Notes under the pieces: generated by a model
The model's database searches: none
The model's input: only the letters and a program-made list of their open reading frames with translations
What the model was told of the DNA's origin: nothing
Shown here: positions 4,950 to 26,816 of the stretch, in pieces
Position numbering within the stretch: the stretch's first letter is position 1
Layout: each line of letters opens with the position of its first letter
IMG/VR virus record: IMGVR_UViG_3300049201_000036
Span: 1-26,880 of that record
Length of the DNA: 26,880 bases
Reading direction: 5' to 3' (one strand)
From: a virus
Lineage: Duplodnaviria; Caudoviricetes
Position numbers and translations under genes: made by a program

Positions 4950-5245
4950 TTTCGCGAGCGCTGCGACAGGGTGACGCAATAGCACAACCCACGACTAGTG
5001 CACAAGCAGAAACCCCCGCCCCTATCAAAACTCCCTGTGTTTTCTTGAAGACACCAAGTGTGGTCTAGGCTGTTGGTCCATAGGCTTTTACCCCTCCCCC
5101 GGGGTGCGATATTGATCTGTAATGGATACGTGAATACATTTAGACTCGACAGGCCTCCCGAAGGGTGAAAGCCGTATAGCATACGGTTGCGCGCCGACGC
5201 GAAGCGCAGGCGGCAAGGCGAGCGGGAGCGGTAAGCCTTTGCTGG

Positions 5246-5410
5246 TTATACGTGTGCCTTGGTTGCCGGCTCACATGTGGAGATCAGTGCCATCAGCCGG
5301 CCAATTTCCTCGTCCTTGCACTGAACCTTGGCATTTGCGATGTCTCGTTCCTTGCGGGCGTCGTCCAGCTTGGATTCGAGCTCGTTGGTTTCCCCGCCGG
5401 ATCGAACCGC
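5246..5410 (-). pseudogene. Probable frameshifted coiled-coil cassette gene remnant
   Basis: One frame reads ETNELESKLDDARKERDIANAKVQCKDEEIGRLMALISTCEPATKAHV* and stops in the GTTATAC box, but has an upstream in-frame stop and no clear start. Confidence 0.4.
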
Positions 5411-5412
5411 TC

Positions 5413-5532
5413 AGCGAACCAAGCGATACCGCTCTTGGGCTGATGCGTGCAAGTAGGTCCGCCGAGTGTGGCGACGATGTTGCGAGCGAGGCAGGCGGGG
5501 CAGTGGTCGGGTGCGATGCTTATTGGTTGAGC
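5413..5532 (+). repeat. Degenerate attC-like site (candidate)
   Basis: AGCGAAC-CAAGC at the left and GTTGAGC at the right, overlapping the end of ORF 5520-5816; arm pairing is weak. Confidence 0.35.
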
Positions 5533-5816
5533 GCGGATCGCTTCATGGCGCTTTCGATTTCGCTGAGTGCGGCGCGAATAGCCTGCTCGGCATCCAGCGG
5601 GGCGTGTGACCCCTTTGCGCCGACTGCTATCCATCCGGCCATCCAGTTGATGAGAGAGTAGGGGATTTCGTAGCGCAGTCCGGCGTAAGTCAGGATGGCC
5701 ACCGGCTCGGGCGGAACCGCAGGCCAAGCCGAAGGCCGCCACAAGAGAGCCGAATCAGGCACTGAGGAAGGAAGGCCGGTATCTGCCGGCGGTTGGGAGT
5801 TGGTTGGTGTTTCCAT
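5520..5816 (-). CDS. Hypothetical cassette protein whose N-terminus is encoded in the attC-like site
   Basis: 98 aa; N-terminus METPTNSQPPADTG is nearly the same as that of ORF 8120-8614. Confidence 0.65.
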   Translation of the reverse strand: METPTNSQPPADTGLPSSVPDSALLWRPSAWPAVPPEPVAILTYAGLRYEIPYSLINWMAGWIAVGAKGSHAPLDAEQAIRAALSEIESAMKRSALNQ

Positions 5817-5918
5817 GGTTGCGAGGATAGCTCATCCCGTGCGATGGCGACAACCCCGCAGGCGATGTTGTGCACGGTCTGATATACAAACGGCCGTTGG
5901 CTGAATCAGTGGTTAGGC
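5749..5918 (+). repeat. Degenerate attC-like site A
   Basis: GCCGAAT-CAGGC ... GTTAGGC; shares a 45-bp block (42/45) with site F. Confidence 0.55.
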
Positions 5919-6179
5919 GGAAATGGGTTCGGGGCGTTTCACGCCGGAGAATCCGCGGCGCTTGAGCTTCACTTCGACCTTGCCGACCGTCTTTCCGCGA
6001 CGGTCCTTGGCGGTCCAGTAGGCGTATCCGCCTTGCCACCACAGACTGTCGCCCTCGGATATGGAGCGAGCCTCCGCCGTGTTCTCGACGTAGATTGCGC
6101 AGGTGTCGCGCTTGTCCTGAGTGTTCACCCATACGCGATCACCGACGACGATTGTTTCGATTACTTTTCCACCGACCAT
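5913..6179 (-). CDS. Hypothetical cassette protein (beta-rich, 88 aa)
   Basis: AAGGA RBS upstream; TAA stop lies inside GTTAGGC; bounded by complementary R boxes. Confidence 0.8.
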   Translation of the reverse strand: MVGGKVIETIVVGDRVWVNTQDKRDTCAIYVENTAEARSISEGDSLWWQGGYAYWTAKDRRGKTVGKVEVKLKRRGFSGVKRPEPISA

Positions 6180-6225
6180 TTTAGTTCCTTTGTTGAGGTT
6201 GATTTTTACTCGAAAGATTTGAGGC

Positions 6226-6283
6226 GCCTAACCGGCCGCCGGTCGCAACGGGGCTACGCCCCGCGCGACGCCTCGGTGTTGGG
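6226..6283 (+). repeat. attC-like site B (58 bp)
   Basis: GCCTAAC-cggcc-gccggtcgc...gcgacgcc-tcggt-GTTGGGT, with one extra base in the left arm. Confidence 0.85.
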
Positions 6284-6478
6284 TAGAGACTGAAAGCGGT
6301 CCGCCGTTAACATCGTGACAAACGCGCATCCGGAGTCTGGCCCGGCTGCTTCGATGCCTTGGTCGGTCACGAAAATGGACATCTTGAGTTCCTCGCACCA
6401 AAACTGGATGCGATCAGGAGCGGCCACGCGGACGAATGTGAGGTTTTCGGTATGCTCGAATTTTTGTTTGGGAGTCAT
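6254..6478 (-). CDS. Hypothetical cassette protein (74 aa)
   Basis: Fills the B-C interval; C-terminus PNTEASRGA is read from site B. Confidence 0.7.
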   Translation of the reverse strand: MTPKQKFEHTENLTFVRVAAPDRIQFWCEELKMSIFVTDQGIEAAGPDSGCAFVTMLTADRFQSLPNTEASRGA

Positions 6479-6489
6479 GAGGGAAAATT

Positions 6490-6616
6490 GCCCAACCAGG
6501 CGGCGGGAAACAACGCTCGGGGCTCGCTGTGAACTATCCGGAATTTCAGGATAGTTGGCCGTTGTGTATTTCAGTTTTGGTTACGCTCGCGGGCGTTGCT
6601 GGTATCGGTGTTAGGC
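6490..6616 (+). repeat. attC-like site C (127 bp) with inner palindrome
   Basis: GCCCAAC-caggc...caacgctcggg / cgcgggcgttg...tcggt-GTTAGGC. Confidence 0.75.
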
Positions 6617-6822
6617 ATGATGATTTCCGCGTTGCCCGCGTAGGATGTCCCGGCATCCCGGTAGAACCACCAAGCGCCGCACGAGCTATCGACCGCGAAG
6701 CTATGGCCATCGGCGCAGCACACGGTCATCTCCATGTCGCCGGCTTTGTGCGCGATGTTGTCGGAGTGATTTCGCACCATGACTTTATCGCCGATCTGGA
6801 TGTTACTGAGTTTTGTTTTCAT
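6571..6822 (-). CDS. Hypothetical cassette protein (MKTKLSNIQIGDKV...)
   Basis: Fills the C-D interval; C-terminus is read from site C. Confidence 0.7.
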   Translation of the reverse strand: MKTKLSNIQIGDKVMVRNHSDNIAHKAGDMEMTVCCADGHSFAVDSSCGAWWFYRDAGTSYAGNAEIIMPNTDTSNARERNQN

Positions 6823-6834
6823 GGGAAATCTGGA

Positions 6835-6921
6835 GCCCAACTAGGCGGTAGAGAAACAACGCTCGATGCTCGCCGTGAGCTATCCGGAAATTCCGGATAG
6901 TTGGCTGGAACGGTGTTCACC
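6835..6921 (+). repeat. Truncated or hybrid attC-like site D
   Basis: The left ~73 bp repeat the left part of site C; the right arm does not pair; ends cggt-GTTCACC on the DnaC-like stop codon. Confidence 0.6.
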
Positions 6922-7636
6922 GCGCGAAGTCGACGACCTCGCAGATATCCAAGAGGCGGGTCAGGATCGCGTCTTGTCGGATGGCGTTGCGGTCGTTTGT
7001 GCCGGCGATTTCGGCCGAGCGGAGGTTGGTCGAGGCGATGAGCGGAAGGGCGAGCTCGCGGCGGATGTCGAGGAACTGCATAAACCAGCCCTCCGACCAA
7101 TCGGCGCGGGCTGAGAGCATGGCCTGCTGCCCGATGTCATCCATGATGAATACGGGGGCGTTGGCTTGGTCGCGCACCCATCGGCGGGCGTCGTCGGTGC
7201 CGTAGCGAACCTGCTCGTTGAGGCGGGCGAACCAGTCGGCCGCTTTGGCGTAGCGCACGGTGACGCGCTCGTCGATGGCGAGGCGGCGGTATAGATCCGC
7301 AATCGCGCGGGTCTTGCCGCGGCCGGACGGACCGGCTGCCAGGATGCCGCGCGGGGATAGCTGCCAGCCGCGAATGCGTGCGATTTGCGGGGCATACGGG
7401 GCAAGGTTGGGGTTGTCCCACTGGGTGGTGCGGTATGTCGGCCCGATGTCGCTTTCGTAGGCTGCCAGCCGAGCGGCCGCGACCTGCTCGGCGATCATGC
7501 GGGCGGCTCGGGCTTGGCGGCGGGTTGCGATCTCCTCGGGCGACTCGGCCGGTATGCTCGCCATGTCCACGCCGAGTTGGGCGGCGAGAACGGCGACAAA
7601 GTCGGCGACTGGGGCGGGAGATTCGCGGGTGCTCAT
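6917..7636 (-). CDS. DnaC/IstB-like AAA+ ATPase (helicase loader)
   Basis: Walker A GPSGRGKT, Walker B FIMDDIG, IASTNL sensor and ILTRL; start placed at ATG 7636. Confidence 0.88.
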   Translation of the reverse strand: MSTRESPAPVADFVAVLAAQLGVDMASIPAESPEEIATRRQARAARMIAEQVAAARLAAYESDIGPTYRTTQWDNPNLAPYAPQIARIRGWQLSPRGILAAGPSGRGKTRAIADLYRRLAIDERVTVRYAKAADWFARLNEQVRYGTDDARRWVRDQANAPVFIMDDIGQQAMLSARADWSEGWFMQFLDIRRELALPLIASTNLRSAEIAGTNDRNAIRQDAILTRLLDICEVVDFAR

Positions 7637-7673
7637 GTTATCCGACGCTGAGTCGCACAATCACTTGTTCAGC
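7631..7673 (+). repeat. attI-like site 1 (40-bp repeat copy 1 plus R box GTTCAGC)
   Basis: GCTCATGTTATCCGACGCTGAGTCGCACAATCACTTGTTC, 38/40 identical to 13005-13044; not a hairpin; heads array 2. Confidence 0.7.
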
Positions 7674-8058
7674 AAAGCGCAGCAGCTGCCTTTTCCAGCG
7701 CCTCGGCTTCTTCTAGTGCCCGGCGTGCTTCCGCGCGTTTTTCAGCCGCCTTTTCCGCTGGATTATCCGCCATCTGGCTTCGCAGGTGTGTGATAGCCGA
7801 CGAGACCGTTGCGTGCGTCATCGCAAGCGCCCGCCCCGGCCCATGCATGGTCCACGAGAGATCGTAGTATGGGTTTTCCTGCCACCGGTATTCGCGCAGA
7901 TTACAGTTTAGTTCGAGATCGGGGGTGAGCAGCCCAGCGGAGCGGCTCGCCGAAAGACGCGCAGCGACCCACATACAGACATCGGCTTCGGTGATGCGAT
8001 CGAGAATTGTCAGGTCGATTTGATCGGCCGGGATTTTGGTGTATTCGGACATGTGCAT
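7669..8058 (-). CDS. Hypothetical cassette protein (129 aa, helical C-terminus)
   Basis: TGA stop inside GTTCAGC; fills the attI-like 1 to E interval. Confidence 0.75.
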   Translation of the reverse strand: MHMSEYTKIPADQIDLTILDRITEADVCMWVAARLSASRSAGLLTPDLELNCNLREYRWQENPYYDLSWTMHGPGRALAMTHATVSSAITHLRSQMADNPAEKAAEKRAEARRALEEAEALEKAAAALC

Positions 8059-8083
8059 GTTTTTGTGAGGTTAAATTTTCGGA

Positions 8084-8189
8084 GCTGAACCAGGGCGCCA
8101 GAGCCAATGCGAATGGGCGTCAGGGGTTATTCGATAAGCGGCCAACGGACGGGCCTCGCCCGTCGCATGGCTCACCGCCGTTGTTCGAC
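8084..8189 (+). repeat. attC-like site E (106 bp)
   Basis: GCTGAAC...gagccaatgcgaatgggcg / cgcccgtcgcatggctc...GTTCGAC with extra bases in the left arm. Confidence 0.9.
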
Positions 8190-8614
8190 GAACCGGCGAG
8201 GGCCTGCTCGACGTCGAGGTGGAGCCACGAGTGCTCGTAGAGGATTCCGCCATGCTCCTTCGCCGCGGCGTGCACCTTCGCCAGAAGGTCCCGGTGCTGG
8301 ACGTTGCAGCGCGCGGCGAGACGGGCCTCGAAAGCACGGAGGTATCCCGGCGCGGCGAAGCCCTGTAGCCACGAGATCAGGGCGTTTTCGTTCGCCCCCT
8401 TGCCGTCCTCATCGTCGGGGATCACGCCGCCTGTCATGCGGCCGCGGTCCGGCTTATCGTGCCGGCGCTCGATCAGGAAGAGTGTCGTCTTCGGATCGTC
8501 GGCGAGATACCCGCGGAGCCATGCTCCGTCGGCATCCCACAAAATCGTCGAACCAGTCGCTGGAGGAGGAACGCCGGTAGCTGCCGGCGGTTGGGAGTTG
8601 GTTGGATTTTCCAT
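8120..8614 (-). CDS. Hypothetical cassette protein (164 aa)
   Basis: Starts inside site F and stops inside site E. Confidence 0.7.
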   Translation of the reverse strand: MENPTNSQPPAATGVPPPATGSTILWDADGAWLRGYLADDPKTTLFLIERRHDKPDRGRMTGGVIPDDEDGKGANENALISWLQGFAAPGYLRAFEARLAARCNVQHRDLLAKVHAAAKEHGGILYEHSWLHLDVEQALAGSSNNGGEPCDGRGPSVGRLSNNP

Positions 8615-8671
8615 GGTCAGAGAGAGGGCGAGGCATCGCCGCCACCGGCGTTCCTCAGCTGGTTGTTAGGC
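8547..8671 (+). repeat. attC-like site F (125 bp)
   Basis: GTCGAAC-cagtc-gctggag..gaggaacgccggtagc / gccaccggcgttcctcagc-tggtt-GTTAGGC. Confidence 0.9.
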
Positions 8672-8929
8672 ACGGAGCGATTGGCCCACTTGCCACGCAC
8701 GCCGGACGCTTGGCGGCAAGCTTGCCAGCTCCGACTCGTCGTAGTCGTCGAAGATGCCGATGCAGGCGTCTGCCGCGCGAAGCTTGGCAACTAGCTTGCG
8801 CACCTCTTCCGGCTCTCTCTTTAGGTCGTCGGCCGTGCAGACGGCGGCCAGCTTGGCGATCCGGCGGGGATGGGTCGCCGGAATGTTGTCCCGGCCAGGT
8901 GGCATTTTCGATGTATCTATGTTGTTCAT
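8666..8929 (-). CDS. Hypothetical cassette protein (87 aa)
   Basis: TAA stop in GTTAGGC; fills the F-G interval. Confidence 0.75.
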   Translation of the reverse strand: MNNIDTSKMPPGRDNIPATHPRRIAKLAAVCTADDLKREPEEVRKLVAKLRAADACIGIFDDYDESELASLPPSVRRAWQVGQSLRA

Positions 8930-8945
8930 ACGAAATAAAAAGGGT

Positions 8946-9002
8946 GCCTAACCTGACGCCTATCCCAACGAGCTGCGCTCGTGGGATGCCTCGGTGTTCA
9001 GC
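8946..9002 (+). repeat. attC-like site G (57 bp)
   Basis: GCCTAAC-ctgac-gcc(t)atccca(a)cgagc-tgc-gctcgtgggatgcc-tcggt-GTTCAGC; two extrahelical bases. Confidence 0.92.
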
Positions 9003-9243
9003 CGAGGTCGGCGAGGAGCGTCCGGCCATCGTTGGCCAGCGCGAAGCACGCACAGGTTTCGCCGGTCATGTGTCCGTCATCGTCCACGACTTCGCATTCG
9101 CTCACGTATTCGATGAGGCCCACGTCTTCGAGCTGCTTGCAGTGCTGGTAGGTGTCGCCTTTCGCGGCGAGCCCGTCGTGGCCCTGCGATTGAGCGCGGG
9201 CGATGTTTTTCAGAAGCGTGATGTCACTTGGATGTAGTTTCAT
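8998..9243 (-). CDS. Hypothetical cassette protein, winged-helix-like (81 aa)
   Basis: Pattern LLKNI...CKQLEDVGLIE...FALANDGRTLL resembles a wHTH; TGA stop in GTTCAGC. Confidence 0.7.
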   Translation of the reverse strand: MKLHPSDITLLKNIARAQSQGHDGLAAKGDTYQHCKQLEDVGLIEYVSECEVVDDDGHMTGETCACFALANDGRTLLADLG

Positions 9244-9258
9244 TTTCGTGGCGTTTTT

Positions 9259-9352
9259 GCTGAACTAGACGCCGATCCCAACACGGGCCGTCGGCTGCAT
9301 TTGTTATTCGTGGGCCGGAGAGAGGCCCGTGTTGGATGCCTCGGTGTTCTCC
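9259..9352 (+). repeat. attC-like site H (94 bp)
   Basis: GCTGAAC-tagac-gccgatcccaacacgggcc / ggcccgtgttggatgcc-tcggt-GTTCTCC. Confidence 0.92.
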
Positions 9353-10188
9353 TAAAAGCCGGTATCGAAGCAGCCGCAGGGCATTGGCCACGCGTCCACA
9401 TCCTCCAGCAGCTTCATTTGCGCCTTGTCGGCCTTCACCAGATCTTCCCATGACCAGTGCCGCCCGAGGCCCTTCACCGTCGTCGCGGCGGTGGCGTTTC
9501 TTTCCATCTCCACGGCTCGCGCGAAGAGGTCCGGGTTATTCTTCGCCAGCTCGATCACGTCCACCTTGCGCGAAGCCGGGCAGTAGAAGCATGCGCTCTT
9601 TGCCGGCGTGAAGCCGGCTTTGCTCACGACGCGTTCGCACCAGACGCGATCCCAGCCCCAGTGGACCAGCGGATACTGGACCACGAATTTCTTGTCGTCG
9701 TAGTCCTTGAGCCGATGAGTCTCATTCACGTCGTAGCCGATGAGCTTCACGACCTTCCCACCTGCGGCCCACGCATCGAGCGCGGGTTGCCACTTGGCGA
9801 GGTAGCGATTTTGCGGCCGCACCTTGTATTTGTCGGAGCAGGATCGGAAGCCGAACGCCAGAGAGGGCAGCGTGTTCGCGGCGCGCACTTCTGCTTCCAG
9901 CGTGGTCCGGCCGTCCTTCACGATGGTTACGGGCGGCAGGCCCTTCATCACGAGCCACGCCGAGAAGGCGTGCACGAATTCGTAGGTCTCGGGCCTCTCA
10001 CCTCCAGTGTCGGAGAAGAGGATTAGATCGGGGACGACGTGGCGCACCGCTGCCATTTCGATGAGCATGGCGGCGCTATTGGTTCCGCCCCCGAAAGAGA
10101 CCACGATGGGCCATTTTACGGAGGGAGAACCGGCCGCCTCAGACAAGCCGGCTACGGTCCGGCCGGCGGGAGCTTTGAGGGTATTCAT
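9352..10188 (-). CDS. PAPS-reductase-like / PP-loop adenine nucleotide alpha-hydrolase protein carried as a cassette
   Basis: IVVSFGGGTNSAAM PP-loop, FSDTGGERPETY, CSDKYK, YPL and KSACFYCP Cys motif. Confidence 0.85.
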   Translation of the reverse strand: MNTLKAPAGRTVAGLSEAAGSPSVKWPIVVSFGGGTNSAAMLIEMAAVRHVVPDLILFSDTGGERPETYEFVHAFSAWLVMKGLPPVTIVKDGRTTLEAEVRAANTLPSLAFGFRSCSDKYKVRPQNRYLAKWQPALDAWAAGGKVVKLIGYDVNETHRLKDYDDKKFVVQYPLVHWGWDRVWCERVVSKAGFTPAKSACFYCPASRKVDVIELAKNNPDLFARAVEMERNATAATTVKGLGRHWSWEDLVKADKAQMKLLEDVDAWPMPCGCFDTGF

Positions 10189-10245
10189 TGGTTGGTTACG
10201 CTGTCGTTAGATTAGGGGGCCGGCTGTCTGGCCTCGGTGTTGTGC
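10124..10245 (+). repeat. attC-like site I (122 bp)
   Basis: GGAGAAC-cggcc-gcc(t)cagaca(a)gccggc / gccggctgtctggcc-tcggt-GTTGTGC; contains one start codon and one stop codon. Confidence 0.9.
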
Positions 10246-10421
10246 GGAAGATAAAGGGTGGTCCAGTAGTGGCCGCATTCCGCATGCTGAAGCGCTGTAA
10301 GTGTCTCCCATCCTTCGTTGAAGAGACGTGCCATTATCGCGATACCGGCTCGCGCGCTGCCGTGCGTGAAGATGATCTCCATCGTGCGGGCTGGGAGTTT
10401 ATCTTGTTCGGTGAGTTGCAT
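10212..10421 (-). CDS. Hypothetical cassette protein (69 aa)
   Basis: Fills the I-J interval; C-terminus HNTEARQPAP is read from site I. Confidence 0.65.
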   Translation of the reverse strand: MQLTEQDKLPARTMEIIFTHGSARAGIAIMARLFNEGWETLTALQHAECGHYWTTLYLPHNTEARQPAP

Positions 10422-10438
10422 GCTGAGTTAAGTTTTCA

Positions 10439-10498
10439 GCCTAACCAGACGGCCTGTCGCAACGTGGCTACGCCCCGCGCGACGCCTCGGTGTTAAAA
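10439..10498 (+). repeat. attC-like site J (60 bp), sister of site B
   Basis: GCCTAAC...gtcgc...gcgacgcctcggt-GTTAAAA; its 29 bp ending in GTT are identical to site B. Confidence 0.85.
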
Positions 10499-11434
10499 CG
10501 CATTCCTGCGCTGCATGATCGGGTCGTCGGGCGACATGCCCGGGTATTCGCGGGACGTGCCGTGGCCGTGGGCTTTCGCGATGTCGCAGCGGGCCCAGTG
10601 CCGGGCCAAGGCCGGCGCAGTCAGGGCGGCGCCGTCGAAGTGCGTGTGGTAGTTCGCGGCACGTCGGGCGATTTCGAACGGCGTCAGGTCGGGCGAGACC
10701 TTGACGATCTTGGCAAGGGACACGCCGACAGCTCGTGCGGTGTCGGCGGTCAGCTGGGACGGCGCGCCGTCTGTGGCCTCGGCAAGGGCGTCGAAGAGCG
10801 GGTTGCGGTCGCGGGTTCTGGGCGGCGTTGCGGCGGGCGTGGCAGGGGCAGGGGCAGGCGGCGGAGGCGGGGTTGGCTCAGGTGCGGCGGGAGGCACCGC
10901 GAAAAGCTCTGCGGCCTCGCCCCCATCCGGTGCCCCGGCAGGGGCGGCGGAAGATTGATTCCCTTTCTCCTTCCTTTCCCCTTCTCCTTCCCTTTCCCCT
11001 TCCGCTTTCGCAAAAATAACCGACGTTGGTTTCTCTTGGGTTATGCCGTGGGTTATCTCGTGGGGGCCAACGTTGGGTCCCACGTTGGCCCCGGTATTGG
11101 TTTTTTCAGGACGGCCACCACGCAGGCCGTTCTTGCGGGCAACCTCGCGCCGAGTCTTCACCTCGTTCTCTTTTTCTCCGGGGTAAAAGCCGACGATCAG
11201 GTCGTCGCCATCCCACTTCCAGAGGCCGCAAGAGACCGAGACCTCGCGCAGGGTGACGCGGGCGAGCTGCTGCCACTGGCGATCCTTCCAAGTGCGTCCG
11301 CCGACGATGCGGCCGGAGTTCTCTTGGCCGATACAGAAGCGGAGCAGGCAGAGCCAGGTCGAGCGCTCGACGGGTGATGAGCCGACGAACTCGGGGGAGT
11401 CGAGGGTGGATGTGTGAAGATTAAGCCAGTCCAT
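10493..11434 (-). CDS. Phage replication initiator-like protein
   Basis: MDWLNLH N-domain, RKNGLRGGRP, repeat-rich linker, EGEREGEGE tract and helical C-domain ending LARHW; upstream of the DnaC-like gene in the operon. Confidence 0.75.
   Translation of the reverse strand: MDWLNLHTSTLDSPEFVGSSPVERSTWLCLLRFCIGQENSGRIVGGRTWKDRQWQQLARVTLREVSVSCGLWKWDGDDLIVGFYPGEKENEVKTRREVARKNGLRGGRPEKTNTGANVGPNVGPHEITHGITQEKPTSVIFAKAEGEREGEGERKEKGNQSSAAPAGAPDGGEAAELFAVPPAAPEPTPPPPPAPAPATPAATPPRTRDRNPLFDALAEATDGAPSQLTADTARAVGVSLAKIVKVSPDLTPFEIARRAANYHTHFDGAALTAPALARHWARCDIAKAHGHGTSREYPGMSPDDPIMQRRNAF
10960..11092. promoter_or_regulatory. Candidate replication origin inside the initiator gene
   Basis: ~12-bp phased repeats TGGGTTATGCCG / TGGGTTATCTCG, an 11-bp inverted repeat (11063-11073 / 11082-11092) and an adjacent purine/pyrimidine-skewed tract, as in lambdoid O genes. 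Confidence 0.55.
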
Positions 11435-11688
11435 GGCTAGAAAAGAGACTCCGCGCCCCGCGTCCATTTTTGGAAAGACCCTCGAAAGACAAAGGGCGTG
11501 GACGCGGTGGCGCGGGTAATTGGGTGGTGTCTTTCATTTGAACTGAGACTTTTCCGGCGCTTTCCACGCACCGAACCTAAGCCTGAATCGGTCGTAGAAA
11601 TCGGCGCGTGAACTTCAAGCAAGTATTGGTGATATGAATACGTATGTGCGGATTCACTCCGCCATTACGAAAACTTACGGCGGTTAGG

Positions 11689-11898
11689 TTATTTTGAGGC
11701 GATGCAGTCGCCGTCGGTGTTGTAGCCGTCAAAGGCAAAGAAGCAGACAGGGGCGAGTGTGCATCCGTCGCATGTGAACTCGGAAACCTTGCGGCCCTCC
11801 TGCCTCTCGCGCTCCAGTGATTCGTGGCGAAGCTCCGCAAGTTCGTCCGGAGTGCGGGGCGTCTTTAGGTCGGCGAACCTTTCTTCGTCTATGCTCAT
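11689..11898 (-). CDS. Small Cys-rich hypothetical protein
   Basis: CDGC-x4-C...C motif; ATGA overlap with the upstream ORF. Confidence 0.7.
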   Translation of the reverse strand: MSIDEERFADLKTPRTPDELAELRHESLERERQEGRKVSEFTCDGCTLAPVCFFAFDGYNTDGDCIASK

Positions 11899-12251
11899 GT
11901 CGGCATTTGAGCGTCTGCGCGGCCGGCGTGGTAGGCATCCACGACAGCGGACGCCTTGCCGACTTCGTGAGCGATGAGCGCGGGCGACGTTGAGCCGTGG
12001 TGTGGGGCGGCCTTTTCAGTGATCCACCACAGGACATGGTCACAGTCGCCGCTTTCCGTCAGTGCATCCTTCACATCCTGAGGCGCGCCCAACTTATCCA
12101 GCGCGGCAAGCAGGGTGTTGGTTAGGTTGCTGAGAAGGACGATGGTCGTTTTGCTAATCGGTGCCGGAGTAAATCCGGCGTCATAAAGTCCAGCATTTAG
12201 GACTCTCTGGGTTTCGGGGGCATGCGGTCCTAGTTTGTTTGTGGTGTTCAT
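11895..12251 (-). CDS. Hypothetical protein (118 aa)
   Basis: ATGA overlaps at both ends. Confidence 0.65.
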   Translation of the reverse strand: MNTTNKLGPHAPETQRVLNAGLYDAGFTPAPISKTTIVLLSNLTNTLLAALDKLGAPQDVKDALTESGDCDHVLWWITEKAAPHHGSTSPALIAHEVGKASAVVDAYHAGRADAQMPT

Positions 12252-12538
12252 GGGTGGTTTGGAAAAAACGTCGGCAACTCAGTGCACGGCGGCGTGAGGT
12301 AAGCATCTCGCCACGCCTCCACGTCCCATTGGTAGAGCGGAAGCGCTAGGTCCACGGTGCGGAGTTCGTCGCGGTCCTCACGGATCATTGGAATCCGCGG
12401 AAGCAGGATCGTCGCAATGATAGGCGCTGGCCTACGGCGTGGCTTGCTGACCTTCGGTGCGGCCGGCTTCCGCTTTTCAACGTGGCGGCCATACCAGTGC
12501 GCCGTGACCTTGCGGCCTTGATAGATGATGCGCCTCAT
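12248..12538 (-). CDS. Hypothetical basic protein (96 aa)
   Basis: Operon position and stop/start overlap. Confidence 0.6.
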   Translation of the reverse strand: MRRIIYQGRKVTAHWYGRHVEKRKPAAPKVSKPRRRPAPIIATILLPRIPMIREDRDELRTVDLALPLYQWDVEAWRDAYLTPPCTELPTFFPNHP

Positions 12539-12551
12539 AATCGGGTCGGTG

Positions 12552-13010
12552 TTACGGGAAAATTTCCTGCGTGGCCCAAGTTCCCGCGCGCCTGTCGCGC
12601 CAAACGAGAACGAAGCGAATGAAGGGAAAGAGGCGGGCTGCGACCTTGAGCTTCACCGCGGCGTCGTCGCGCATGTGGCCCTTGACCTCGTAGGCGGTGA
12701 GCCGCGATGAGCCGGCGGGGTCAGCGACCATGAAATCCGGATTGTAGCGCACGCCGTTGCCGAGCTTCAGGGCCATCGGCTCGCGTTCGATCCACGCGCC
12801 CGGATGCGTGGCCTTGAGGTGCGCAAAAAACAGCGCCTCGGTTTTGTTCATGCCGGCGCCGGACTGCCGGAGCATCACGCGGCCCTCCGCCGGGTGGTCT
12901 GGCCGAACCGCGACCGAATCGGCCGCTCGCGCACCGCCACCCAGCGTCGCCGCGATCTGCGCGCGGTATCGCTCGGGCAACGACGCGGGGTCTATTCGGG
13001 TCCGGCTCAT
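12552..13010 (-). CDS. PD-(D/E)XK nuclease, DUF1064-like
   Basis: MNKTEA, RYNPDF, AYEVKG and VKLKVAA motifs; start placed at ATG 13010. Confidence 0.8.
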   Translation of the reverse strand: MSRTRIDPASLPERYRAQIAATLGGGARAADSVAVRPDHPAEGRVMLRQSGAGMNKTEALFFAHLKATHPGAWIEREPMALKLGNGVRYNPDFMVADPAGSSRLTAYEVKGHMRDDAAVKLKVAARLFPFIRFVLVWRDRRAGTWATQEIFP

Positions 13011-13049
13011 GTTATCCGACGCTGTGTCGCTCAATCACTTGTTCGCTAC
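13005..13049 (+). repeat. attI-like site 2 (40-bp repeat copy 2 plus R box GTTCGCTAC)
   Basis: GCTCATGTTATCCGACGCTGTGTCGCTCAATCACTTGTTC; heads array 3. Confidence 0.7.
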
Positions 13050-13210
13050 TCGAGTTTCGTCACCAGATGGATGACTTCGGGTGTCGATGAGTTGTCGTAG
13101 GTGGCGACGCGCTGGATTGGCACGGACACTTCGCCGCAGACCCATTCGACCACTACTTCGGGGTCGCCGGGGAATGTATTCAGAATCTGGATGAGTTCGT
13201 TTTTAGTCAT
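13046..13210 (-). CDS. Hypothetical cassette protein (MTKNELIQILNTFPGDPEV...)
   Basis: Common phage small-protein N-terminal pattern; fills the cassette. Confidence 0.7.
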   Translation of the reverse strand: MTKNELIQILNTFPGDPEVVVEWVCGEVSVPIQRVATYDNSSTPEVIHLVTKLE

Positions 13211-13228
13211 AGGTTTCGTTGCGTTTGT

Positions 13229-13342
13229 AGCGAACCAAACGGTGGAGAAGCAACGCTCGGGGCTCAGGGGTTTTCGTGGCTTGGTCCAACGCTCGGGGCT
13301 CGCTGATCGCTCGCCCGAGCGTGTCTCACCTCGGTGTTCAGC
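13229..13342 (+). repeat. attC-like site M (114 bp)
   Basis: AGCGAAC-caaac-ggtggaga..caacgctcggg / cccgagcgtgtctcacc-tcggt-GTTCAGC. Confidence 0.88.
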
Positions 13343-13569
13343 TTGAAGATTCGCCGCCACATGGAGGGCCTAGATTTTTCATTCACGCGCACCGCGATCC
13401 TGCGCCGAAGCTCCGGGGCGTTGGCGTTCCGTATCTCATCGAGTTGCTTATTAGCCCAGTTCTCGCAGTCGGAGCACACGTCCTTGACGGTCGCCGTTTG
13501 GTAGCACGAGCGCAGGTCTGCCATGCTGCTGGCGGGTTGTTGTTTGCCGCATATATCGCATTTAGCCAT
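13264..13569 (-). CDS. Zinc-finger-like cassette protein
   Basis: CDIC...CSDC motifs; C-terminus is read from site M. Confidence 0.75.
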   Translation of the reverse strand: MAKCDICGKQQPASSMADLRSCYQTATVKDVCSDCENWANKQLDEIRNANAPELRRRIAVRVNEKSRPSMWRRIFKLNTEVRHARASDQRAPSVGPSHENP

Positions 13570-13595
13570 TTTGGTATTCGGTTGGTGGTTACGGA

Positions 13596-13689
13596 GCTGA
13601 ACCAGGCGTCGCAGAGAACCCGGCTAAGCGTGGCAGGTAGGCGTAGGGTTTAGGTGGTCGGGCCGGGTTCTCTGGCCTCGGTGTTCAGC
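13596..13689 (+). repeat. attC-like site N (94 bp)
   Basis: GCTGAAC-caggc-gtc(g)cagagaacccggc / gccgggttctctggcc-tcggt-GTTCAGC. Confidence 0.93.
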
Positions 13690-13881
13690 CTATAGCTCAG
13701 GGAGCGCGGCCACCTGCTCCTCGGTCATTTGTCGGGCTTCGATGGTGATGCTCTCGGCCTCGGGGTTTTCGTTGAGCCAGTTGGTGACGCCCGCGATGAC
13801 GGCGTTTTTGTCGTCGGTGACAGTGCGCGAAACTCCGTCCGCCATCTCGGCGGGGAGGACATAGTAGGTTTTCGTTTTCAT
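13690..13881 (-). CDS. Hypothetical acidic cassette protein (63 aa)
   Basis: MKTKTYYV...MTEEQVAALPEL fills the N-O interval. Confidence 0.7.
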   Translation of the reverse strand: MKTKTYYVLPAEMADGVSRTVTDDKNAVIAGVTNWLNENPEAESITIEARQMTEEQVAALPEL

Positions 13882-13902
13882 GGGATATTGTTGGTGTTCG
13901 AG

Positions 13903-13962
13903 GCTGAACCGGGCGGCGGAGGACGACGGCGCTAAGCGCCGCGCCTCACCTCGGTGTTCAGA
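13903..13962 (+). repeat. attC-like site O (60 bp)
   Basis: GCTGAAC-cgggc-ggcggaggacgacggcgct-a-agcgccgcgcctcacc-tcggt-GTTCAGA. Confidence 0.9.
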
Positions 13963-14111
13963 CTGCTTCGTGGCGCCTGCCAATCGAGGCGGGCGGCTGT
14001 GTCTTTCGCGGCCTTGAGGATCTCGACGTAACCCGTGCGTGGGTCGCGGTGCTTGCCGCGCAATGGGCTGAGCTTTCCGCACGCGGGCTTGGTGAAGAGG
14101 GGCTTGGTCAT
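13932..14111 (-). CDS. Hypothetical protein reading into site O
   Basis: ATG 14111 overlaps the upstream stop; ends LNTEVRRGA. Confidence 0.55.
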   Translation of the reverse strand: MTKPLFTKPACGKLSPLRGKHRDPRTGYVEILKAAKDTAARLDWQAPRSSLNTEVRRGA

Positions 14112-14296
14112 GCCACCGCTCCCTTCTCCGCGCGCTTGGCCCGGATGAGCGCAGTTGCGCGGTCGATGTCGCCCTTCGTGACTAATACGATGCGGTGCGC
14201 CTTGGTGCCGGTGCTGCATGCCACGGTCCGAAGCGAATCCCAAATCACCTCGCTCAGCTCGGCGTCGGTCAGTTGGTCTAGGGTGTCGGTGCTCAT
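14108..14296 (-). CDS. Hypothetical protein (62 aa)
   Basis: MSTDTLDQLTDAELSE..., GGGAGG RBS and ATGA overlaps. Confidence 0.65.
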   Translation of the reverse strand: MSTDTLDQLTDAELSEVIWDSLRTVACSTGTKAHRIVLVTKGDIDRATALIRAKRAEKGAVA

Positions 14297-14616
14297 ATTG
14301 AAGCCCTCCCGAAGATCCGGACCGCGCGTGACACCGTTGAGCGTGCGACTCCGAAAAGTGCGGCCGTGTCTTCGTGCGAGCGGCCCTTTGCGGCCTTCGC
14401 GATTTTCTCGAGGTCGATGCGAATCTTTGCCGGCACCATGTTGTTCAGCCGGCACGATCTGCGGACGAGGAACGGCGAGACGCCGAAGCGCTCGACGGTC
14501 GCGCTTGTGCCCTCGCGTGCGGCGAACTTGGCCAGCATGCGCGTCTCTTCTTTGGTGAGCCGGCGGAATATGTTTTTCCCGCCGTTGTCTCGGGTGGGTG
14601 CGTTGAGGCGTTTCAT
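14293..14616 (-). CDS. Helix-turn-helix DNA-binding protein
   Basis: SHEDTAALFGVARSTVSRAV HTH plus a second HTH-like segment. Confidence 0.75.
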   Translation of the reverse strand: MKRLNAPTRDNGGKNIFRRLTKEETRMLAKFAAREGTSATVERFGVSPFLVRRSCRLNNMVPAKIRIDLEKIAKAAKGRSHEDTAALFGVARSTVSRAVRIFGRASI

Positions 14617-15272
14617 AGGGCACCTCCTTCCACCCGCTTGAACTCCACGACCCACACGTTGGGATTCGCGTCCCACGAGCCGGCGCCGTTGATGGATTCC
14701 CAGAGGGCGCGGTAGGAGCGGCGCGGGTCGGTGAATGCCTCCACCGGGCCTCCGCTTACATCCTTGTTAGGGAAATAGTTTCTCCAGAACACGGAATCGC
14801 CGTGCATGACACGCTCAATGCCCTCAGCCACCGCGTCCGCCTCGCTGATGTCCTGCAACCGCTCCACGCGGACGGAGGTGATTTCGAGGGTGATGCGGGA
14901 GGCGAAGCGGGGCATGTGAATCGATGGACGCCAGCGGAACACGGCGCGCAGGTCCCCACCTTCGTCGTCCGCCGGATAGCTGACATGGTAGCCATCAGGA
15001 AGCGCCTTCGGGATGCCCTTGGCGTAGTCGTAGGCGATACCCTCGCCGTCGTAGAGTCCCCAAGTTTCGCGGACCCAGAGCGTATCGCCGGGGGCGCCGT
15101 AGGGGCAGGGCAATTGATCCAGCGGAACGGGGTGGTCGCCGTTGAGGGACCATCCCTCCTCCCACTCGACAAGGTCGCCCTTGAGGATCCGCCGCGTCTG
15201 CCCCTTCGGGTCGATCTCGCGGAGCAACGCGCGCACCATCGGCGCGGAAAATAAAATGGGCCGGGATTTCAC
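14613..15272 (-). CDS. Conserved phage protein (RPILFSAPMVRA / WRPSIHMPR family, ASCH-like)
   Basis: CPYGAPGDTLWVRETW, SRITLEITSVRVERLQDISEADAVAEG and WDANPNVWVVEF; GTG start with AGGAGG RBS. Confidence 0.85.
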   Translation of the reverse strand: MKSRPILFSAPMVRALLREIDPKGQTRRILKGDLVEWEEGWSLNGDHPVPLDQLPCPYGAPGDTLWVRETWGLYDGEGIAYDYAKGIPKALPDGYHVSYPADDEGGDLRAVFRWRPSIHMPRFASRITLEITSVRVERLQDISEADAVAEGIERVMHGDSVFWRNYFPNKDVSGGPVEAFTDPRRSYRALWESINGAGSWDANPNVWVVEFKRVEGGAL

Positions 15273-15943
15273 GAGGCACCTCCTTTCGCGTCGGCATCCG
15301 CTGCGGTCGCTTTCCATTCGCCGATTGGGGCGAGATTAAAACGGGCTCGCGCCTCGTTGTAGCGGACGGCGAACGCGAAAAGCTCGGCTTCGAGTTTCTC
15401 GGTAAATTCATCCCGCACCACGCGCAGGTGAAACGGGGCAGCGTGGCGCGCATAGCTGAAGAAGTCCCACCACGGGCGGCCAGTCACGGCGAGGTAGCCG
15501 TGAACCTGGCACTTGTAGTCCGCCGGCAATACACCGGCGCGGACGTAGCCGATGTGAGTCGAGAGGTTGGGGCACTTGATTTCGACGCCGCCGGACTCGC
15601 CGACGATGGCATCAGGCGATCCGCCGAAAAGCCCGCTGTCGTGCATGACGAAGCCGACCTCCGAAAGCGGTTCCTTGGCGTGCTCCAGCTCGTAGCAACA
15701 CCGCGCCTCCGCCTCGAGCTTAACGCCCTCTTCCATATCGGGCGACATGAACGACGGCTTCAGCAGGCCCTCGGCAGGCGGGAGGATACTCTCGGCGACC
15801 AGCTCGTTAATGAGCTTGTCCTGCGCCGTGGAAGGCTGGCCCTTGGCGGCGGTCAGGATCTGGTCGAAGCGGCTGGCGGTGGGCACGCCGCGGCGGATAG
15901 TGAACCACTCCTCGGAGCGCTGGTTGAGGTTGTAGACCTTCAC
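15269..15943 (-). CDS. YqaJ / lambda-exonuclease-family recombination nuclease
   Basis: QRSEEWFTIRRGVPTAS, GGSPDAIV, VEIKCP and YKCQVHG motifs. Confidence 0.92.
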   Translation of the reverse strand: MKVYNLNQRSEEWFTIRRGVPTASRFDQILTAAKGQPSTAQDKLINELVAESILPPAEGLLKPSFMSPDMEEGVKLEAEARCCYELEHAKEPLSEVGFVMHDSGLFGGSPDAIVGESGGVEIKCPNLSTHIGYVRAGVLPADYKCQVHGYLAVTGRPWWDFFSYARHAAPFHLRVVRDEFTEKLEAELFAFAVRYNEARARFNLAPIGEWKATAADADAKGGAS

Positions 15944-16677
15944 TTGCCACCCCCGAGCTTACGGCGGAGCGCATCGCACACGTTGATGAACCGGCCGGCG
16001 TGGACTTCCTGCGCGCAGGTGGCCCCGGCGAACTTCCAGAAAGCTGCCTCGTTGAAGTCCGGGACCCCACGGGCTGCTTGGAGTAGGTCGGTAATCTGCC
16101 GAGTCTGCTCGTCGCTCACGAACACGGCTCCGGCCGCGTGGCCGTCGTCGTCGTCACCGGTCACAATGCCGAGGGCGGAGCACATGGCGTATCGTCGCGC
16201 ATAGGTGCTCGCGCTGCCCATCTGCTGCGCCTTGTTCTGCCCCTTGATCAGCTCGGGAACCGGGATGTCTTGGATGATTCGCTCCCCGTGGCCGTCGCGG
16301 TGGCGGAGTTGGCCTTCCACGCGACAAAGGCCTTCGCGTAGCTCGCACACCTGCCACGTGATCGAGAGTCCAAGCTGCGTCAGAAGCGGGCGGATGGTCC
16401 TCCAGATGCGGTCAAGGCGCGCATACTCTTTGTCATATGCCTTGTCTCCCTTTTCGATGATGGGGGCGCGGCGTTGAAATTCGGATACCGCGAGGTTGTA
16501 GGCCTTGCGGGCTTCGTCGGCTTCCCAATCGCGGCGGACGGCGAGAAGCTCGCGGAGGTATTCGGGACTCGCGCCGGTGCGCGTGGCCTCTTGGATGAGC
16601 GAGAGGACGCCAGTAGTGGCGCGATCCTCGCGAACGGCCAAAGCGTCAGACTTGACTGCGGTGTTTTCGGTAATCAT
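15940..16677 (-). CDS. erf: ERF-family single-strand annealing protein
   Basis: YARLDRI and AQQMGSASTYARRYAMCSALGIVTGDDDDG signature; paired with the exonuclease. Confidence 0.9.
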   Translation of the reverse strand: MITENTAVKSDALAVREDRATTGVLSLIQEATRTGASPEYLRELLAVRRDWEADEARKAYNLAVSEFQRRAPIIEKGDKAYDKEYARLDRIWRTIRPLLTQLGLSITWQVCELREGLCRVEGQLRHRDGHGERIIQDIPVPELIKGQNKAQQMGSASTYARRYAMCSALGIVTGDDDDGHAAGAVFVSDEQTRQITDLLQAARGVPDFNEAAFWKFAGATCAQEVHAGRFINVCDALRRKLGGGK

Positions 16678-17910: not shown

Positions 17911-18207
17911 TTATTCGGGGCGCTGCGCCTCATGGTTTCCTTTCTGCTGAGTTTTGCCCAAAATGGTTTCACCGCCGGCCGCGTCGGCGCGGGGACCCTT
18001 CCCCTGGCTACGACGGTCGCCGCTCTCCTTTTCAGCGGCCAAGCCGGGCGCGGTCACGACGGTGAAAGTTGACGGCGGGACGATCCCGCCAAAGTTGCGA
18101 CGGCGGCTGAACCGGCGAAACGGCCGGCCGGGATGCAGCGGAACAGGCGCGCTCACGTCGCCTCCGCTCGCTGCTACGTCCGCTAGGTATTCGCCGAAGT
18201 CGCTCAT
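17911..18207 (-). CDS. Hypothetical protein (98 aa)
   Basis: ATGA overlap with the methyltransferase stop; no motifs recognised. Confidence 0.45.
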   Translation of the reverse strand: MSDFGEYLADVAASGGDVSAPVPLHPGRPFRRFSRRRNFGGIVPPSTFTVVTAPGLAAEKESGDRRSQGKGPRADAAGGETILGKTQQKGNHEAQRPE

Positions 18208-19202: not shown

Positions 19203-19378
19203 GGCTGGTCCTCCTCTTCGCCCTCGGTGTTGTCCGGGTAGCAGAAGGCGCAGATGACAAAGTAAACCCCGCCCATGACCCCGAACGCGAGGAACAGCAG
19301 CACGAGCAGCCAGCCGGCAAACGCCTCGGGGCTCAGCGCGCGAACCCAGTCGCACAGCGCGATGAAGGCGTCACGCAT
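19199..19378 (-). CDS. Small single-pass membrane protein (59 aa)
   Basis: Not in the ORF track; manual translation MRDAFIALCDWVRALSPEAFAGWLLVLLFLAFGVMGGVYFVICAFCYPDNTEGEEEDQP, with GGAGG RBS. Confidence 0.7.
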   Translation of the reverse strand: MRDAFIALCDWVRALSPEAFAGWLLVLLFLAFGVMGGVYFVICAFCYPDNTEGEEEDQP

Positions 19379-25416: not shown

Positions 25417-26631
25417 TCAAACCGACGGCACCTTGGCCAGCTCTGCCGCGGCCTGATCGAGTTCCGTGTGCGTGTAGCCCCGATTTACCGCCTCGTCCTC
25501 GTGGCCGATCAGCCGCATCCGCCAGTCCTCGCCGACGCCCGCCGCAGCAAGCCACGAAGAGAGCGAGTGCCTGAGAGAGTGGAGCGAATATTCGGCGAGT
25601 CGCCGGCCGAGCCCTCGCCCCTCTCCGCTGGCGAACTCCTGCACGATCCCGGCACGCGGCAGGATGCCCCGGCGGAACTCGTTCGAGACGTGCCGGCGCT
25701 GCATGGCTGCGATATGCGGCATGACCTTGCCACGCCTGTCCGCCTCGGGCGTCCGCGCCAGATGCGCAGCAAGCGAGGCATGGAGCGGAATCCAGTGCTC
25801 GTCCCCGTTCTTCGCGCGCTCGAGCATGATCCGGCGCCGGGTCAAATCGACCTGCGCCCATGAAAGCTGCGCCGCCTCCTGTTGCCGCGCGCCGGTGTAG
25901 CCGCACACCATTACGAGGGTCTGCCAGTCGGGCGGTAGCGTGAAGTTTTTGCCGCGCCCTCCGGCGCCCGGTCGCACGTAGTCCGGCGCCGTCACCCTCA
26001 CCAATTCACGGAATTGCTCAAACGTGAACGCACGTCGCTTCTGCGCGGTTCGCTTCTCGCCCTTCACGTTGATCCCGCGGGCGGGGTTGACGGAGAGAAG
26101 GCCGGTCGTGTGCGCCTCGGCGAATGCCTGAGCAAGCACCATCAGCGCCTTGTTTACCGTGCGCGCCGACTTACCCGCCGCCCCCTCAGCGTCGCGGAAC
26201 TCGACCACGCGCGCGCCCGTGATCTCGCCAAGCGGGCCGCCGGCGCGAGGGCCGAGGAAGGCAAGGAAGCCGTCAACGATGCTGCTGTAGCGGACGTAGG
26301 AGGCGGGCTTGAGCGACTTTTCCCGCCCGCGCAGCCAGCCCCGCAAGTAGTCGTCAGTCTTGACCGTCGCCCCCGTGCTGACGCCCACGATGGCCTCGAT
26401 CTCAGACAGGAAGCGCCGGGCCGCGCTTTCACCCCATCGCTTCTCCGCTGCTGCCAGAGCCGCGCGCTCGTAGCTGATCGCGAGTTGCAGCGCCTTGGTC
26501 TTGTCGTCCGTGCCGGCGGATCTTTGGACGCGACGAAACACGGGCTTTCCCTTGTCGTCGATCTGCCCGGTCGGCATCTTGTAGCACGCGAACCAGTGAG
26601 AAGTGCCTGCGCGAGATCGAACGGAAGCCAT
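25417..26631 (-). CDS. int: Phage integrase (tyrosine recombinase)
   Basis: Catalytic R (YTGARQQE), K (AKNG), HSLRH, IGH and Y (RGYTH), with N-terminal arm-binding and core-binding regions; start placed at ATG 26631. Confidence 0.93.
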   Translation of the reverse strand: MASVRSRAGTSHWFACYKMPTGQIDDKGKPVFRRVQRSAGTDDKTKALQLAISYERAALAAAEKRWGESAARRFLSEIEAIVGVSTGATVKTDDYLRGWLRGREKSLKPASYVRYSSIVDGFLAFLGPRAGGPLGEITGARVVEFRDAEGAAGKSARTVNKALMVLAQAFAEAHTTGLLSVNPARGINVKGEKRTAQKRRAFTFEQFRELVRVTAPDYVRPGAGGRGKNFTLPPDWQTLVMVCGYTGARQQEAAQLSWAQVDLTRRRIMLERAKNGDEHWIPLHASLAAHLARTPEADRRGKVMPHIAAMQRRHVSNEFRRGILPRAGIVQEFASGEGRGLGRRLAEYSLHSLRHSLSSWLAAAGVGEDWRMRLIGHEDEAVNRGYTHTELDQAAAELAKVPSV

Positions 26632-26816
26632 GACAACAGGACTGACCACAGCCGCCCATTCCAAGTCAACTGACCTTTGCTGCCACCCTAGGTAAGTTGC
26701 TTAAAAATAGCGACTTGCGGACTCCCTACAGCTGCACCACTCTCCACACAACCCGCTAGCCTCCAGAGGTTAGCGGGTTTTTAGTGGCTGAGACTGACAA
26801 CGGAACCGACAACAGG
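26631..26816 (+). other. Attachment site, probably attP: tRNA 3'-end core with arm-like repeats on both sides
   Basis: Core GACT-CCCTA-CAGCTGC-A-CCA (26720-26739); repeats TGACAACAGG, TGACCACAGC, TGACAACGGA and CGACAACAGG at 26631, 26643, 26795 and 26807. Confidence 0.75.
26750..26782 (+). terminator. Intrinsic terminator following the tRNA 3' fragment
   Basis: AACCCGCTAGCCT-ccag-AGGTTAGCGGGTT-TTT. Confidence 0.8.

Follow-up and report, generated by a model that had tools for sequence, protein, structure and literature searches.

Arrays of putative reversed integron cassettes in the early region of a temperate phage

Background

Integrons are bacterial gene-capture devices in which the polarity of the attC sites points new genes away from the Pc promoter. 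We examined the virus record IMGVR_UViG_3300049201_000036, the whole of which (26,880 bp) is referred to below as the window; it belongs by gene content to a temperate tailed phage, and its early region carries 13 attC-type sites in three arrays, between positions 5749 and 13962. On the strength of sequence comparison, we consider it fairly probable that these are three arrays of integron-type cassettes with their genes on the attC bottom strand, and that an IntI integrase acting in trans excises and inserts the cassettes at G|TT.

The closest described systems are attC clusters in other phages; comparisons with the literature are based here on the accessible portions of the papers cited. Clustered attC sites without a neighbouring intI are termed a CALIN (PMC9024848) and, judged by its sequence, the region is a CALIN by this definition, having at least two clustered attC sites and no neighbouring intI. 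Among 10,705 phage genomes, Qi et al. (2023; PMC9892861) report 17 CALINs as well as 3 integrons; of the six phage attC sites tested, five were recombined by IntI1. A sequence-only reading of the window had known of no description of such an arrangement; attC clusters in phages, shown to recombine with IntI1, had already been published, whereas the reversed cassette layout, like the phage IntI groups considered below, was not found described in the literature searched, which took in few subscription papers. Like the phage CALINs of Qi et al., those of the window are attC clusters without intI in a phage early region; unlike them (2-4 sites each), they amount to 13 sites in three arrays. An antisense rule, start codons within attC sites, multiple arrays per operon, entry sites and exchange between relatives are not given in the accessible portion of that paper. 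Under the attC model of the present analysis, the genes of their example TJE1 lie in the normal sense and those of MW202573 antisense. The latter (our locus L034, 2069-3446) is a published phage CALIN with genes antisense to attC, on which the same portion of the paper is silent.

The sedentary chromosomal integrons of Verrucomicrobiota (L161, L209-L225) share with the window the attC sequence family, the box layout, the arm with extra bases and the core complementarity, an anatomy as in Bouvier et al. (2009; PMC2727003). Unlike the window, they have top-strand genes (in 29 of 33 intervals the longest open reading frame, or ORF, lies on that strand), an adjoining intI, and an L'-R' spacer of mostly 6 nt, as against 5 nt in eight sites of the window. 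Inverted-integrase integrons (Cury et al. 2016, PMC4889954; PMC13323075) are alike in that intI and cassette genes are transcribed in one direction. They turn intI relative to attC, whereas the IntI-bearing viral contigs discussed below turn the cassette genes and leave intI on the strand opposite to attC, as usual; the window, unlike inverted-integrase integrons, is without intI. Finally, IntI in trans also inserts cassettes outside attI in attG insertion (Loot et al., bioRxiv 10.1101/2022.09.11.507474), and by analogy insertion of this type could give rise to arrays at several positions within a phage. The attG insertions are single events at short motifs, whereas the window has two arrays starting from one conserved 40-bp repeat, with 3-6 cassettes.

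Results and discussion

Thirteen attC sites in three arrays

The sequence-only reading had listed 11 clear hairpin sites of 57-127 bp and three degenerate ones. All 11 begin where it placed them and have AAC and GTT cores closing the hairpin (lengths, in order from 6226 to 13903: 59, 127, 106, 125, 57, 94, 122, 60, 114, 94 and 60 bp), and two of the degenerate sites could be located (5749-5918 and 6835-6921). Its claim that eight sites end in CCTCGGT-GTT holds, the eight copies comparing with at most one in 200 dinucleotide shuffles. An initial scan by fold energy was unspecific (82 of 354 pairs passed) and was replaced by a scan for arm pairing, which found nine non-overlapping AAC..GTT hairpins in 5200-14000 (mean 1.2, maximum 4 in 60 shuffles) and three matches in the other 18 kb of the window.

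The identification of these hairpins as attC sites is supported by their arm anatomy, by model matches and by core pairing. In bottom-strand folds the L boxes are paired (some of them with mismatches), the R''-L'' arm carries the extra-helical bases, and the central spacer is unpaired. Extra-helical bases mark the R''-L'' arm of attC (PMC2727003), and all nine arm-pairing hairpins carry their extra bases on the 5' arm of the + strand; since the R''-L'' arm thus comes first on the + strand, where the strong model matches are also found, the + strand is the attC top strand.

The covariance model used (not the IntegronFinder model) was trained only on attC sites adjoining intI in Verrucomicrobiota genomes. 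Fourteen of 21 host integron regions gave 58 sites, of which 48 were aligned after omission of 10 near-duplicates, while the other seven regions yielded no array that was retained. Run on the window with filters off, and roughly calibrated, it matched seven of the 11 sites at E<0.01 (19.8-34.1 bits), all on the + strand and within 6226-13962, with nothing below E 0.05 outside the arrays. The sequence-only reading, which expected plus-strand matches and would have been refuted by a lack of model support, thus passes this check.

The sites are all placed on the + strand. Array 1 is made up of a degenerate site at 5749..5918 (170 bp, without a model match, its R'' core changed from AAC to AAT), the attC at 6226..6284 (25.0 bits), a partly degenerate attC at 6490..6616 (a partial match of 10.4 bits) and a second degenerate site at 6835..6921. 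Array 2 has attC sites at 8084..8189 (34.1 bits), 8547..8671 (30.3 bits), 8946..9002 (14.2 bits), 9259..9352 (called by arm pairing and core complementarity, being missed on the + strand by the model), 10124..10245 (25.3 bits) and 10439..10498 (14.1 bits). Array 3 has them at 13229..13342 (26.6 bits), 13596..13689 (30.3 bits) and 13903..13962 (19.8 bits).

Hairpins placed, like these, between the genes of one operon would be transcribed if the genes are, and they could instead be RNA elements of the early transcript (terminators, or processing or stability stems) that resemble attC by chance. No Rfam family came close to its gathering score, a terminator scan gave 15 matches against 10.4 in shuffles, none of them a whole site, and RNA structure leaves unexplained both the core pairing and the breakpoints presented below. 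We regard this explanation as extremely improbable, although the sites may act in RNA form in addition to their role as DNA.

Core pairing and the limits of the cassettes

True cassettes show pairing between the base quartet just outside the AAC of R'' and the quartet that follows GTT at the cassette's own far end, the two meeting in the circular form. In the window, R'' is complementary at all four positions to the core of its own cassette in nine of the 13, as against one of the 13 for the adjacent core; none of 100,000 permutations reached nine. The same preference is seen in host integrons (own core 25/28, adjacent core 8/28) and in the arrays of IntI-bearing viral contigs (16/24 as against 1/24, with 13/13 in L383).

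This pairing fixes the crossover Gs. They lie at 5912, 6278, 6610 and 6915 in array 1, one in each site in the order given above; at 7667 and then, site by site, at 8183, 8665, 8996, 9346, 10239 and 10492 in array 2; and at 13041 and then 13336, 13683 and 13956 in array 3. The first G of arrays 2 and 3 falls in the 40-bp repeat that heads them (see below). Position 5245, which the sequence-only reading had taken as the left limit of the system, has a core match of only 1/4 and was rejected as the left end of array 1. A cassette unit consists of a G|TT core, a reversed gene, and then an attC in front of that gene's start; IntI would act on such units through folded bottom strands and circular intermediates.

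Sites 5749 and 8547 are chimeric, having 81 bp in common at 83% identity (window 5739-5819 and 8537-8617). The segment common to their loops encodes a start codon and an N-terminal peptide, with the result that unrelated ORFs have nearly the same first 18 residues. A third, chimeric version of this loop segment is carried by G001, a related sequence described below.

Cassette genes antisense to their attC sites

Every ORF of the arrays is on the - strand, antisense to the + strand attC sites, an orientation absent from the sequence-only reading. The latter had described one small ORF between successive sites; ORFs are indeed present there, but three start inside hairpins, several overrun the next one and one is 278 aa long. 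In array 1 they are the 98-aa ORF 5520..5816 (no family match), which starts inside the loop of site 5749, an 88-aa gene at 5913..6179, whose stop codon is in the cassette core, a 74-aa ORF at 6254..6478, which extends into site 6226, and an 83-aa ORF at 6571..6822. Array 2 has ORFs of 129 aa at 7669..8058 (no family match, and no relative in viral contigs beyond the window's own copy), 164 aa at 8120..8614 (starting in the 8547 loop and ending in site 8084), 87 aa at 8666..8929 and 81 aa at 8998..9243, followed by the 278-aa gene of the PAPS-reductase family at 9352..10188, with its start codon inside the 10124 loop, and by a 69-aa ORF at 10212..10421 that extends into site 10124. Array 3 contributes ORFs of 54 aa (13046..13210), 101 aa (13264..13569, extending into site 13229) and 63 aa (13690..13881).

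Three ORF starts (5816, 8614 and 10188) thus lie inside attC loops, several cassette ORFs stop in the cassette core, and several extend into the neighbouring hairpin. In each cassette the attC sits in front of the start of the gene, the hairpin being the gene's leader. The canonical arrangement, with a gene on the top strand and upstream of its attC, does not occur in the window. The - strand cassette ORFs are real genes, because 5913-6179 has 110 homologues and 9352-10188 matches the Pfam family PAPS_reduct. A tblastn search with 15 ORFs in or adjoining the arrays against all loci fetched left 12 without a match.

A Pc promoter on the top strand could not transcribe cassette genes on the - strand. 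No promoter of the sigma-70 type was found in 5000-14300, and expression by read-through from the early promoter therefore seems likely, the reversed genes being read by the leftward early transcription of the phage rather than from an integron Pc promoter. In a host integron such reversed cassettes would be silent, which suggests that phages have a separate cassette pool.

Related sequences differ at G|TT

The sequence-only reading had proposed that the phage gains, loses and reorders early genes by attC recombination, and that gene-content breakpoints in related phages should fall at G|TT. Both proposals are supported by sequence comparison: such units are gained, lost and rearranged among relatives, and breakpoints fall at G|TT in G001, in metagenome loci and in contigs of individual metagenome runs. 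It is from this comparison of relatives only that a crossover at G|TT is known for these sites.

G001 (41 kb) has its backbone in common with the window (flanking blocks 95-99.9% identical) and carries different cassette genes. A 1,189-bp block of 99.7% identity begins at G10492, the crossover G of site 10439, and five short common blocks end at or just after GTT (5914, 7669, 8998, 13043 and 13959); site 8946 has two near-identical copies in G001, beside other genes. Over all pairs of sequences compared, block ends fall at GTT in 18 of 40 cases in array loci and in one of 24 outside them, the background being 4-10%.

In metagenome loci, a unit of 382 bp that carries the homologue of 5913-6179 changes place as a whole; it extends from a GTT across the gene as far as the GTT of the gene's own attC, about 90 bases past the start codon. 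A second unit, of 268 bp, occupies different positions in L342 and L343. The neighbours of these units belong to PHROG families for DNA polymerase, methyltransferases and HNH nucleases. Nine metagenome loci of 5913-6179 homologues hold attC matches, 23 in all, every one antisense to the homologue. In five of the 14 loci scanned with the attC model (out of 24 PAPS loci), one of the closest relatives of the PAPS-reductase gene, at 69-72% identity, has a reversed attC where the gene starts. A search for the PAPS-reductase gene in 401 Verrucomicrobiota genomes gave nothing at E 1e-30; as it had no positive control, it carries little weight. A pattern scan gave 27 viral matches, of which three are real sites, namely the window's own copy, G001 and G008, a complete provirus in which three reversed attC sites lie upstream of the initiator. 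A pattern scan of genome contigs gave 120 loci, which turned out on inspection to be chance matches.

Contigs of eight metagenome runs (X1-X8) were aligned to the region. Five of the 13 joints listed have one end no more than 4 bases from a crossover G, as do, within 3 bases, eight of the 39 loose contig ends listed (47 more are unlisted). One contig of X7 has a joint between site 8547 and backbone position 13953, one letter being shared and the short side measuring 112 bases; one of X8 lacks the 305-bp cassette 6610-6915, the short side here being 30 bases long. Three further joints of X8 fit, this run resembling G001 and not being independent of it. The relative in X7 also has an attC of the 6226 type in front of gene 11895-12251 (joint 12258 to 6226), where the window has none; this difference is possibly a cassette made or unmade.

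Exchange between these phages might also be explained if the hairpins were dispersed repeats for the phage's own Red-like recombination, with no current role for IntI. A YqaJ-like exonuclease and an Erf-like annealing protein are encoded at 15269..16677 (- strand), the sites 5749 and 8547 are chimeric as described above, G001 has a deletion between 6-bp direct repeats at 5518/5862, and most block ends between the window and G001 fall away from GTT. Homologous exchange, however, predicts neither that R'' should pair with a core several hundred bases away, nor units starting at the G of GTT after unrelated sequence, nor a joint with a single shared letter. As the whole explanation it is improbable. 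Exchange by Erf and YqaJ probably does operate as a second process, these genes being a candidate second route of gene exchange outside the cassette system.

Core genes and candidate entry sites

According to the sequence-only reading, the arrays are separated by core genes. Two of these are confirmed: arrays 1 and 2 are separated by the gene for a DnaC-like helicase loader (6917..7636, - strand), and array 3 is preceded by that for a Holliday junction resolvase (12552..13010, - strand). The initiator that it also named, at 10493..11467 on the - strand, is without a family match and is a probable replication initiator by its look-alikes, phage proteins of the replisome-organiser type. A tblastn search with the DnaC-like protein gave no match in annotated phages.

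Arrays 2 and 3 are each headed by a copy of a 40-bp repeat that is not an attC (7631-7669 and 13005-13043, 95% identical); the first cassette starts at its end, and the repeat overlaps the start codon of the next core gene. No such repeat was found for array 1, and the exact repeat was found only in G001 and in the window's own copy. We call it an entry site because of its position at the head of the arrays and the breakpoints found there. The putative entry site of array 2, attI-like by position, would span 7631..7673 (+ strand, crossover G 7667, overlapping the start of the DnaC-like gene), and its second copy 13005..13047 (+ strand, crossover G 13041). The repeats before the DnaC-like and resolvase genes would be where cassettes enter, so that each newcomer would come to lie at the end of its array farthest from the promoter, the reverse of the situation in bacterial integrons. 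By eye, the repeat aligns with the DNA preceding phage intI genes.

That DNA holds a conserved 40-bp element of its own, which precedes intI in many viral contigs (L417, L419, L421, L433, L443, L449 and others). A profile of six sequences of this element gave 38 matches at E<=10 in viral IntI loci, the best held-out among the matches listed scoring 34 bits, and no significant match on 57 host loci.

Source of the integrase

There is no IntI match in the window record, and hence no intI beside the arrays as in a complete integron. The integrase that the window does encode, at 25417..26631 (- strand), had been judged an ordinary phage integrase, and rightly so: it scores 18 bits with TIGR02249, for which the cut-off is 265, and has a gap at the IntI insertion when aligned with four phage IntIs. 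Being the sole tyrosine recombinase found on the contig, it might nonetheless be thought to recombine the folded sites itself. This appears very improbable for an enzyme with that score, without the IntI insertion and encoded 11 kb from the arrays, and the complete phage record G410 has three reversed attC sites without any match to PF00589 (tyrosine recombinase).

G001 has no IntI either, nor have G008 and G410, both of them complete records, so that the enzyme must be supplied in trans. The sequence-only reading had named a host IntI, or a gene outside the window, as the likely catalyst. Supply in trans is supported, but the source could be other than the host, as there are related viral contigs that encode IntI. 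On the host side, 115 of 401 Verrucomicrobiota genomes have an IntI above cut-off, among them G116 and G401, in which the nearest relatives of the window's integrase occur; the arm-pairing scanner found no array in the loci around these two relatives (L174-L177). On the viral side, four contigs (G409, L383, L384 and L385) encode a full IntI directly downstream of reversed arrays, and all four proteins pass the cut-off. In G409 the IntI gene starts about 15 bases past the first crossover of a reversed array, which holds a 72% identical PAPS-reductase cassette; L383, L384 and L385 have the reversed layout with 14, 5 and 3 upstream attC matches. The neighbours of these IntI genes are phage genes. 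The enzyme could come, with about equal likelihood, from a chromosomal integron of the host or from a co-resident phage with its own intI.

A wider scan for viral IntIs gave 86 loci, of which 80 were kept and 68 had enough upstream DNA for an ORF test. By this crude test, 48 intervals are antisense and 15 sense; 11 loci are mostly antisense and none mostly sense. A FastTree phylogeny of 68 viral and 50 host IntIs has virus-only groups of 30, 20, 10 and 7 sequences (supports of 0.95, 0.99, 0.82 and 0.42) and one single viral sequence; as the host sample is from one phylum only, monophyly of the viral IntIs is not shown by this tree. Seven members of the second of these groups, a well-supported one of 20 IntI-like proteins (L400, L432, L440, L451, L456, L459 and L465) have attC downstream of the gene and on the same strand, which differs from the reversed layout. 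In L387 (5963-6230), most of the middle of a phage intI has been deleted, the remnant still standing at the end of a seven-site reversed array.

It is therefore conceivable, and we put this forward tentatively as somewhat short of probable, that temperate phages possess their own integron system in reversed form, in which virus-only IntI lineages are placed at the ends of early operons, phage genes become cassettes when they gain an attC as 5' leader, and phages that lack intI, this one included, tap the same pool through several entry sites. We know of no explanation for the creation of cassettes in integrons; if a phage-run reversed system exists, cassette creation would be traceable gene by gene, and gene families with and without an attC leader, such as those of the PAPS reductase and of 5913-6179, would be a test case for the origin of cassettes. 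More generally, with attC polarity reversed and phage genes as cargo, the mosaicism of early regions in temperate phages would owe something to site-specific recombination, in addition to the homologous and illegitimate kinds. Because the sites are short, they lend themselves directly to the standard attC assay.

Evidence to be set against cassette exchange

A number of results weigh against the reading of the region as arrays of integron-type cassettes exchanged by IntI. Four of the 11 clear sites scored below 15 bits or were missed by the covariance model (8946 and 10439 weak at about 14 bits, 6490 a partial match only, and 9259 matched only weakly and on the opposite strand), two more sites are degenerate, and the model is not only rough in its calibration, it was also trained on sites picked by our own scanner. 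The profile of six phage attI regions, which finds other phage attI sites, gives the 40-bp repeats of the window only about 3 bits (E about 6); the identity of these repeats as attI is therefore not established by similarity. Among the common blocks of at least 100 bp between the window and G001, only one of nine ends inside the region is at GTT, the others being ordinary mosaic joints; the 40 junctions in array loci are not independent of one another, and many of the left ones also coincide with stop codons. The cassette genes occur without attC too: the model, under default filters, has no match in 42 viral loci of 5913-6179, matches are confined to nine of the 80 metagenome loci of its homologues, and the PAPS gene of L351 (71% identical) has no attC, nor have relatives at 48% identity or less. 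Runs X1, possibly the run of origin, and X2 carry the region unchanged, without joints. Lastly, the window is a fragment, and an intI may lie in the missing part, though G001 has none.

Some of these results would be expected of a fossil integron, that is, of arrays assembled by IntI in an ancestor that carried intI, with the gene since lost and the sites now decaying and serving as gene leaders. Phage integrons of the same layout with their own intI do exist, and the intI of L387 is internally deleted; in the window two sites are degenerate and four weak, and X1 and X2 have no joints. Against this, G001, with flanking blocks 95-99.9% identical to the window, has other genes between the sites and a boundary at G10492; nine cores have kept perfect complementarity; and contigs of other runs have joints at G|TT. 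A fossil therefore seems rather unlikely, and continuing exchange of cassettes by an IntI in trans is the reading that we prefer.

The phage and its host

The window is the whole virus record, itself a fragment that CheckV estimates to be 33% complete. Portal, terminase and HNH genes occupy its left end; to the right of the structural genes is a long leftward early region with the DnaC-like loader, the resolvase, YqaJ, Erf and a DNA methyltransferase, and the integrase is at the right end. The closest relatives of the integrase among seven matches in the 401 Verrucomicrobiota genomes have 55% and 51% identity, and the Atlas cluster nearest to the probable initiator is mostly from Verrucomicrobiota; on these grounds the host was probably a member of Verrucomicrobiota. 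At least a quarter of the array region was present in seven soil metagenome runs; no RNA dataset containing it was listed.

Three other features of the window may be mentioned. Upstream of the integrase, 26690-26790 has a CCA-ended stretch followed by a hairpin and a T run, conserved in G001. It resembles that half of an att site which corresponds to the end of a tRNA, yet no tRNA gene is called by ARAGORN there or anywhere else in the window. A C5 DNA methyltransferase is encoded on the - strand in two overlapping frames (18204-19355 and 18212-19084), both with PHROG methyltransferase matches. Finally, inside the probable initiator gene there are a 30-bp palindrome (11063-11092) and a pyrimidine-rich repeat (10965-11014), as expected of a replication origin.

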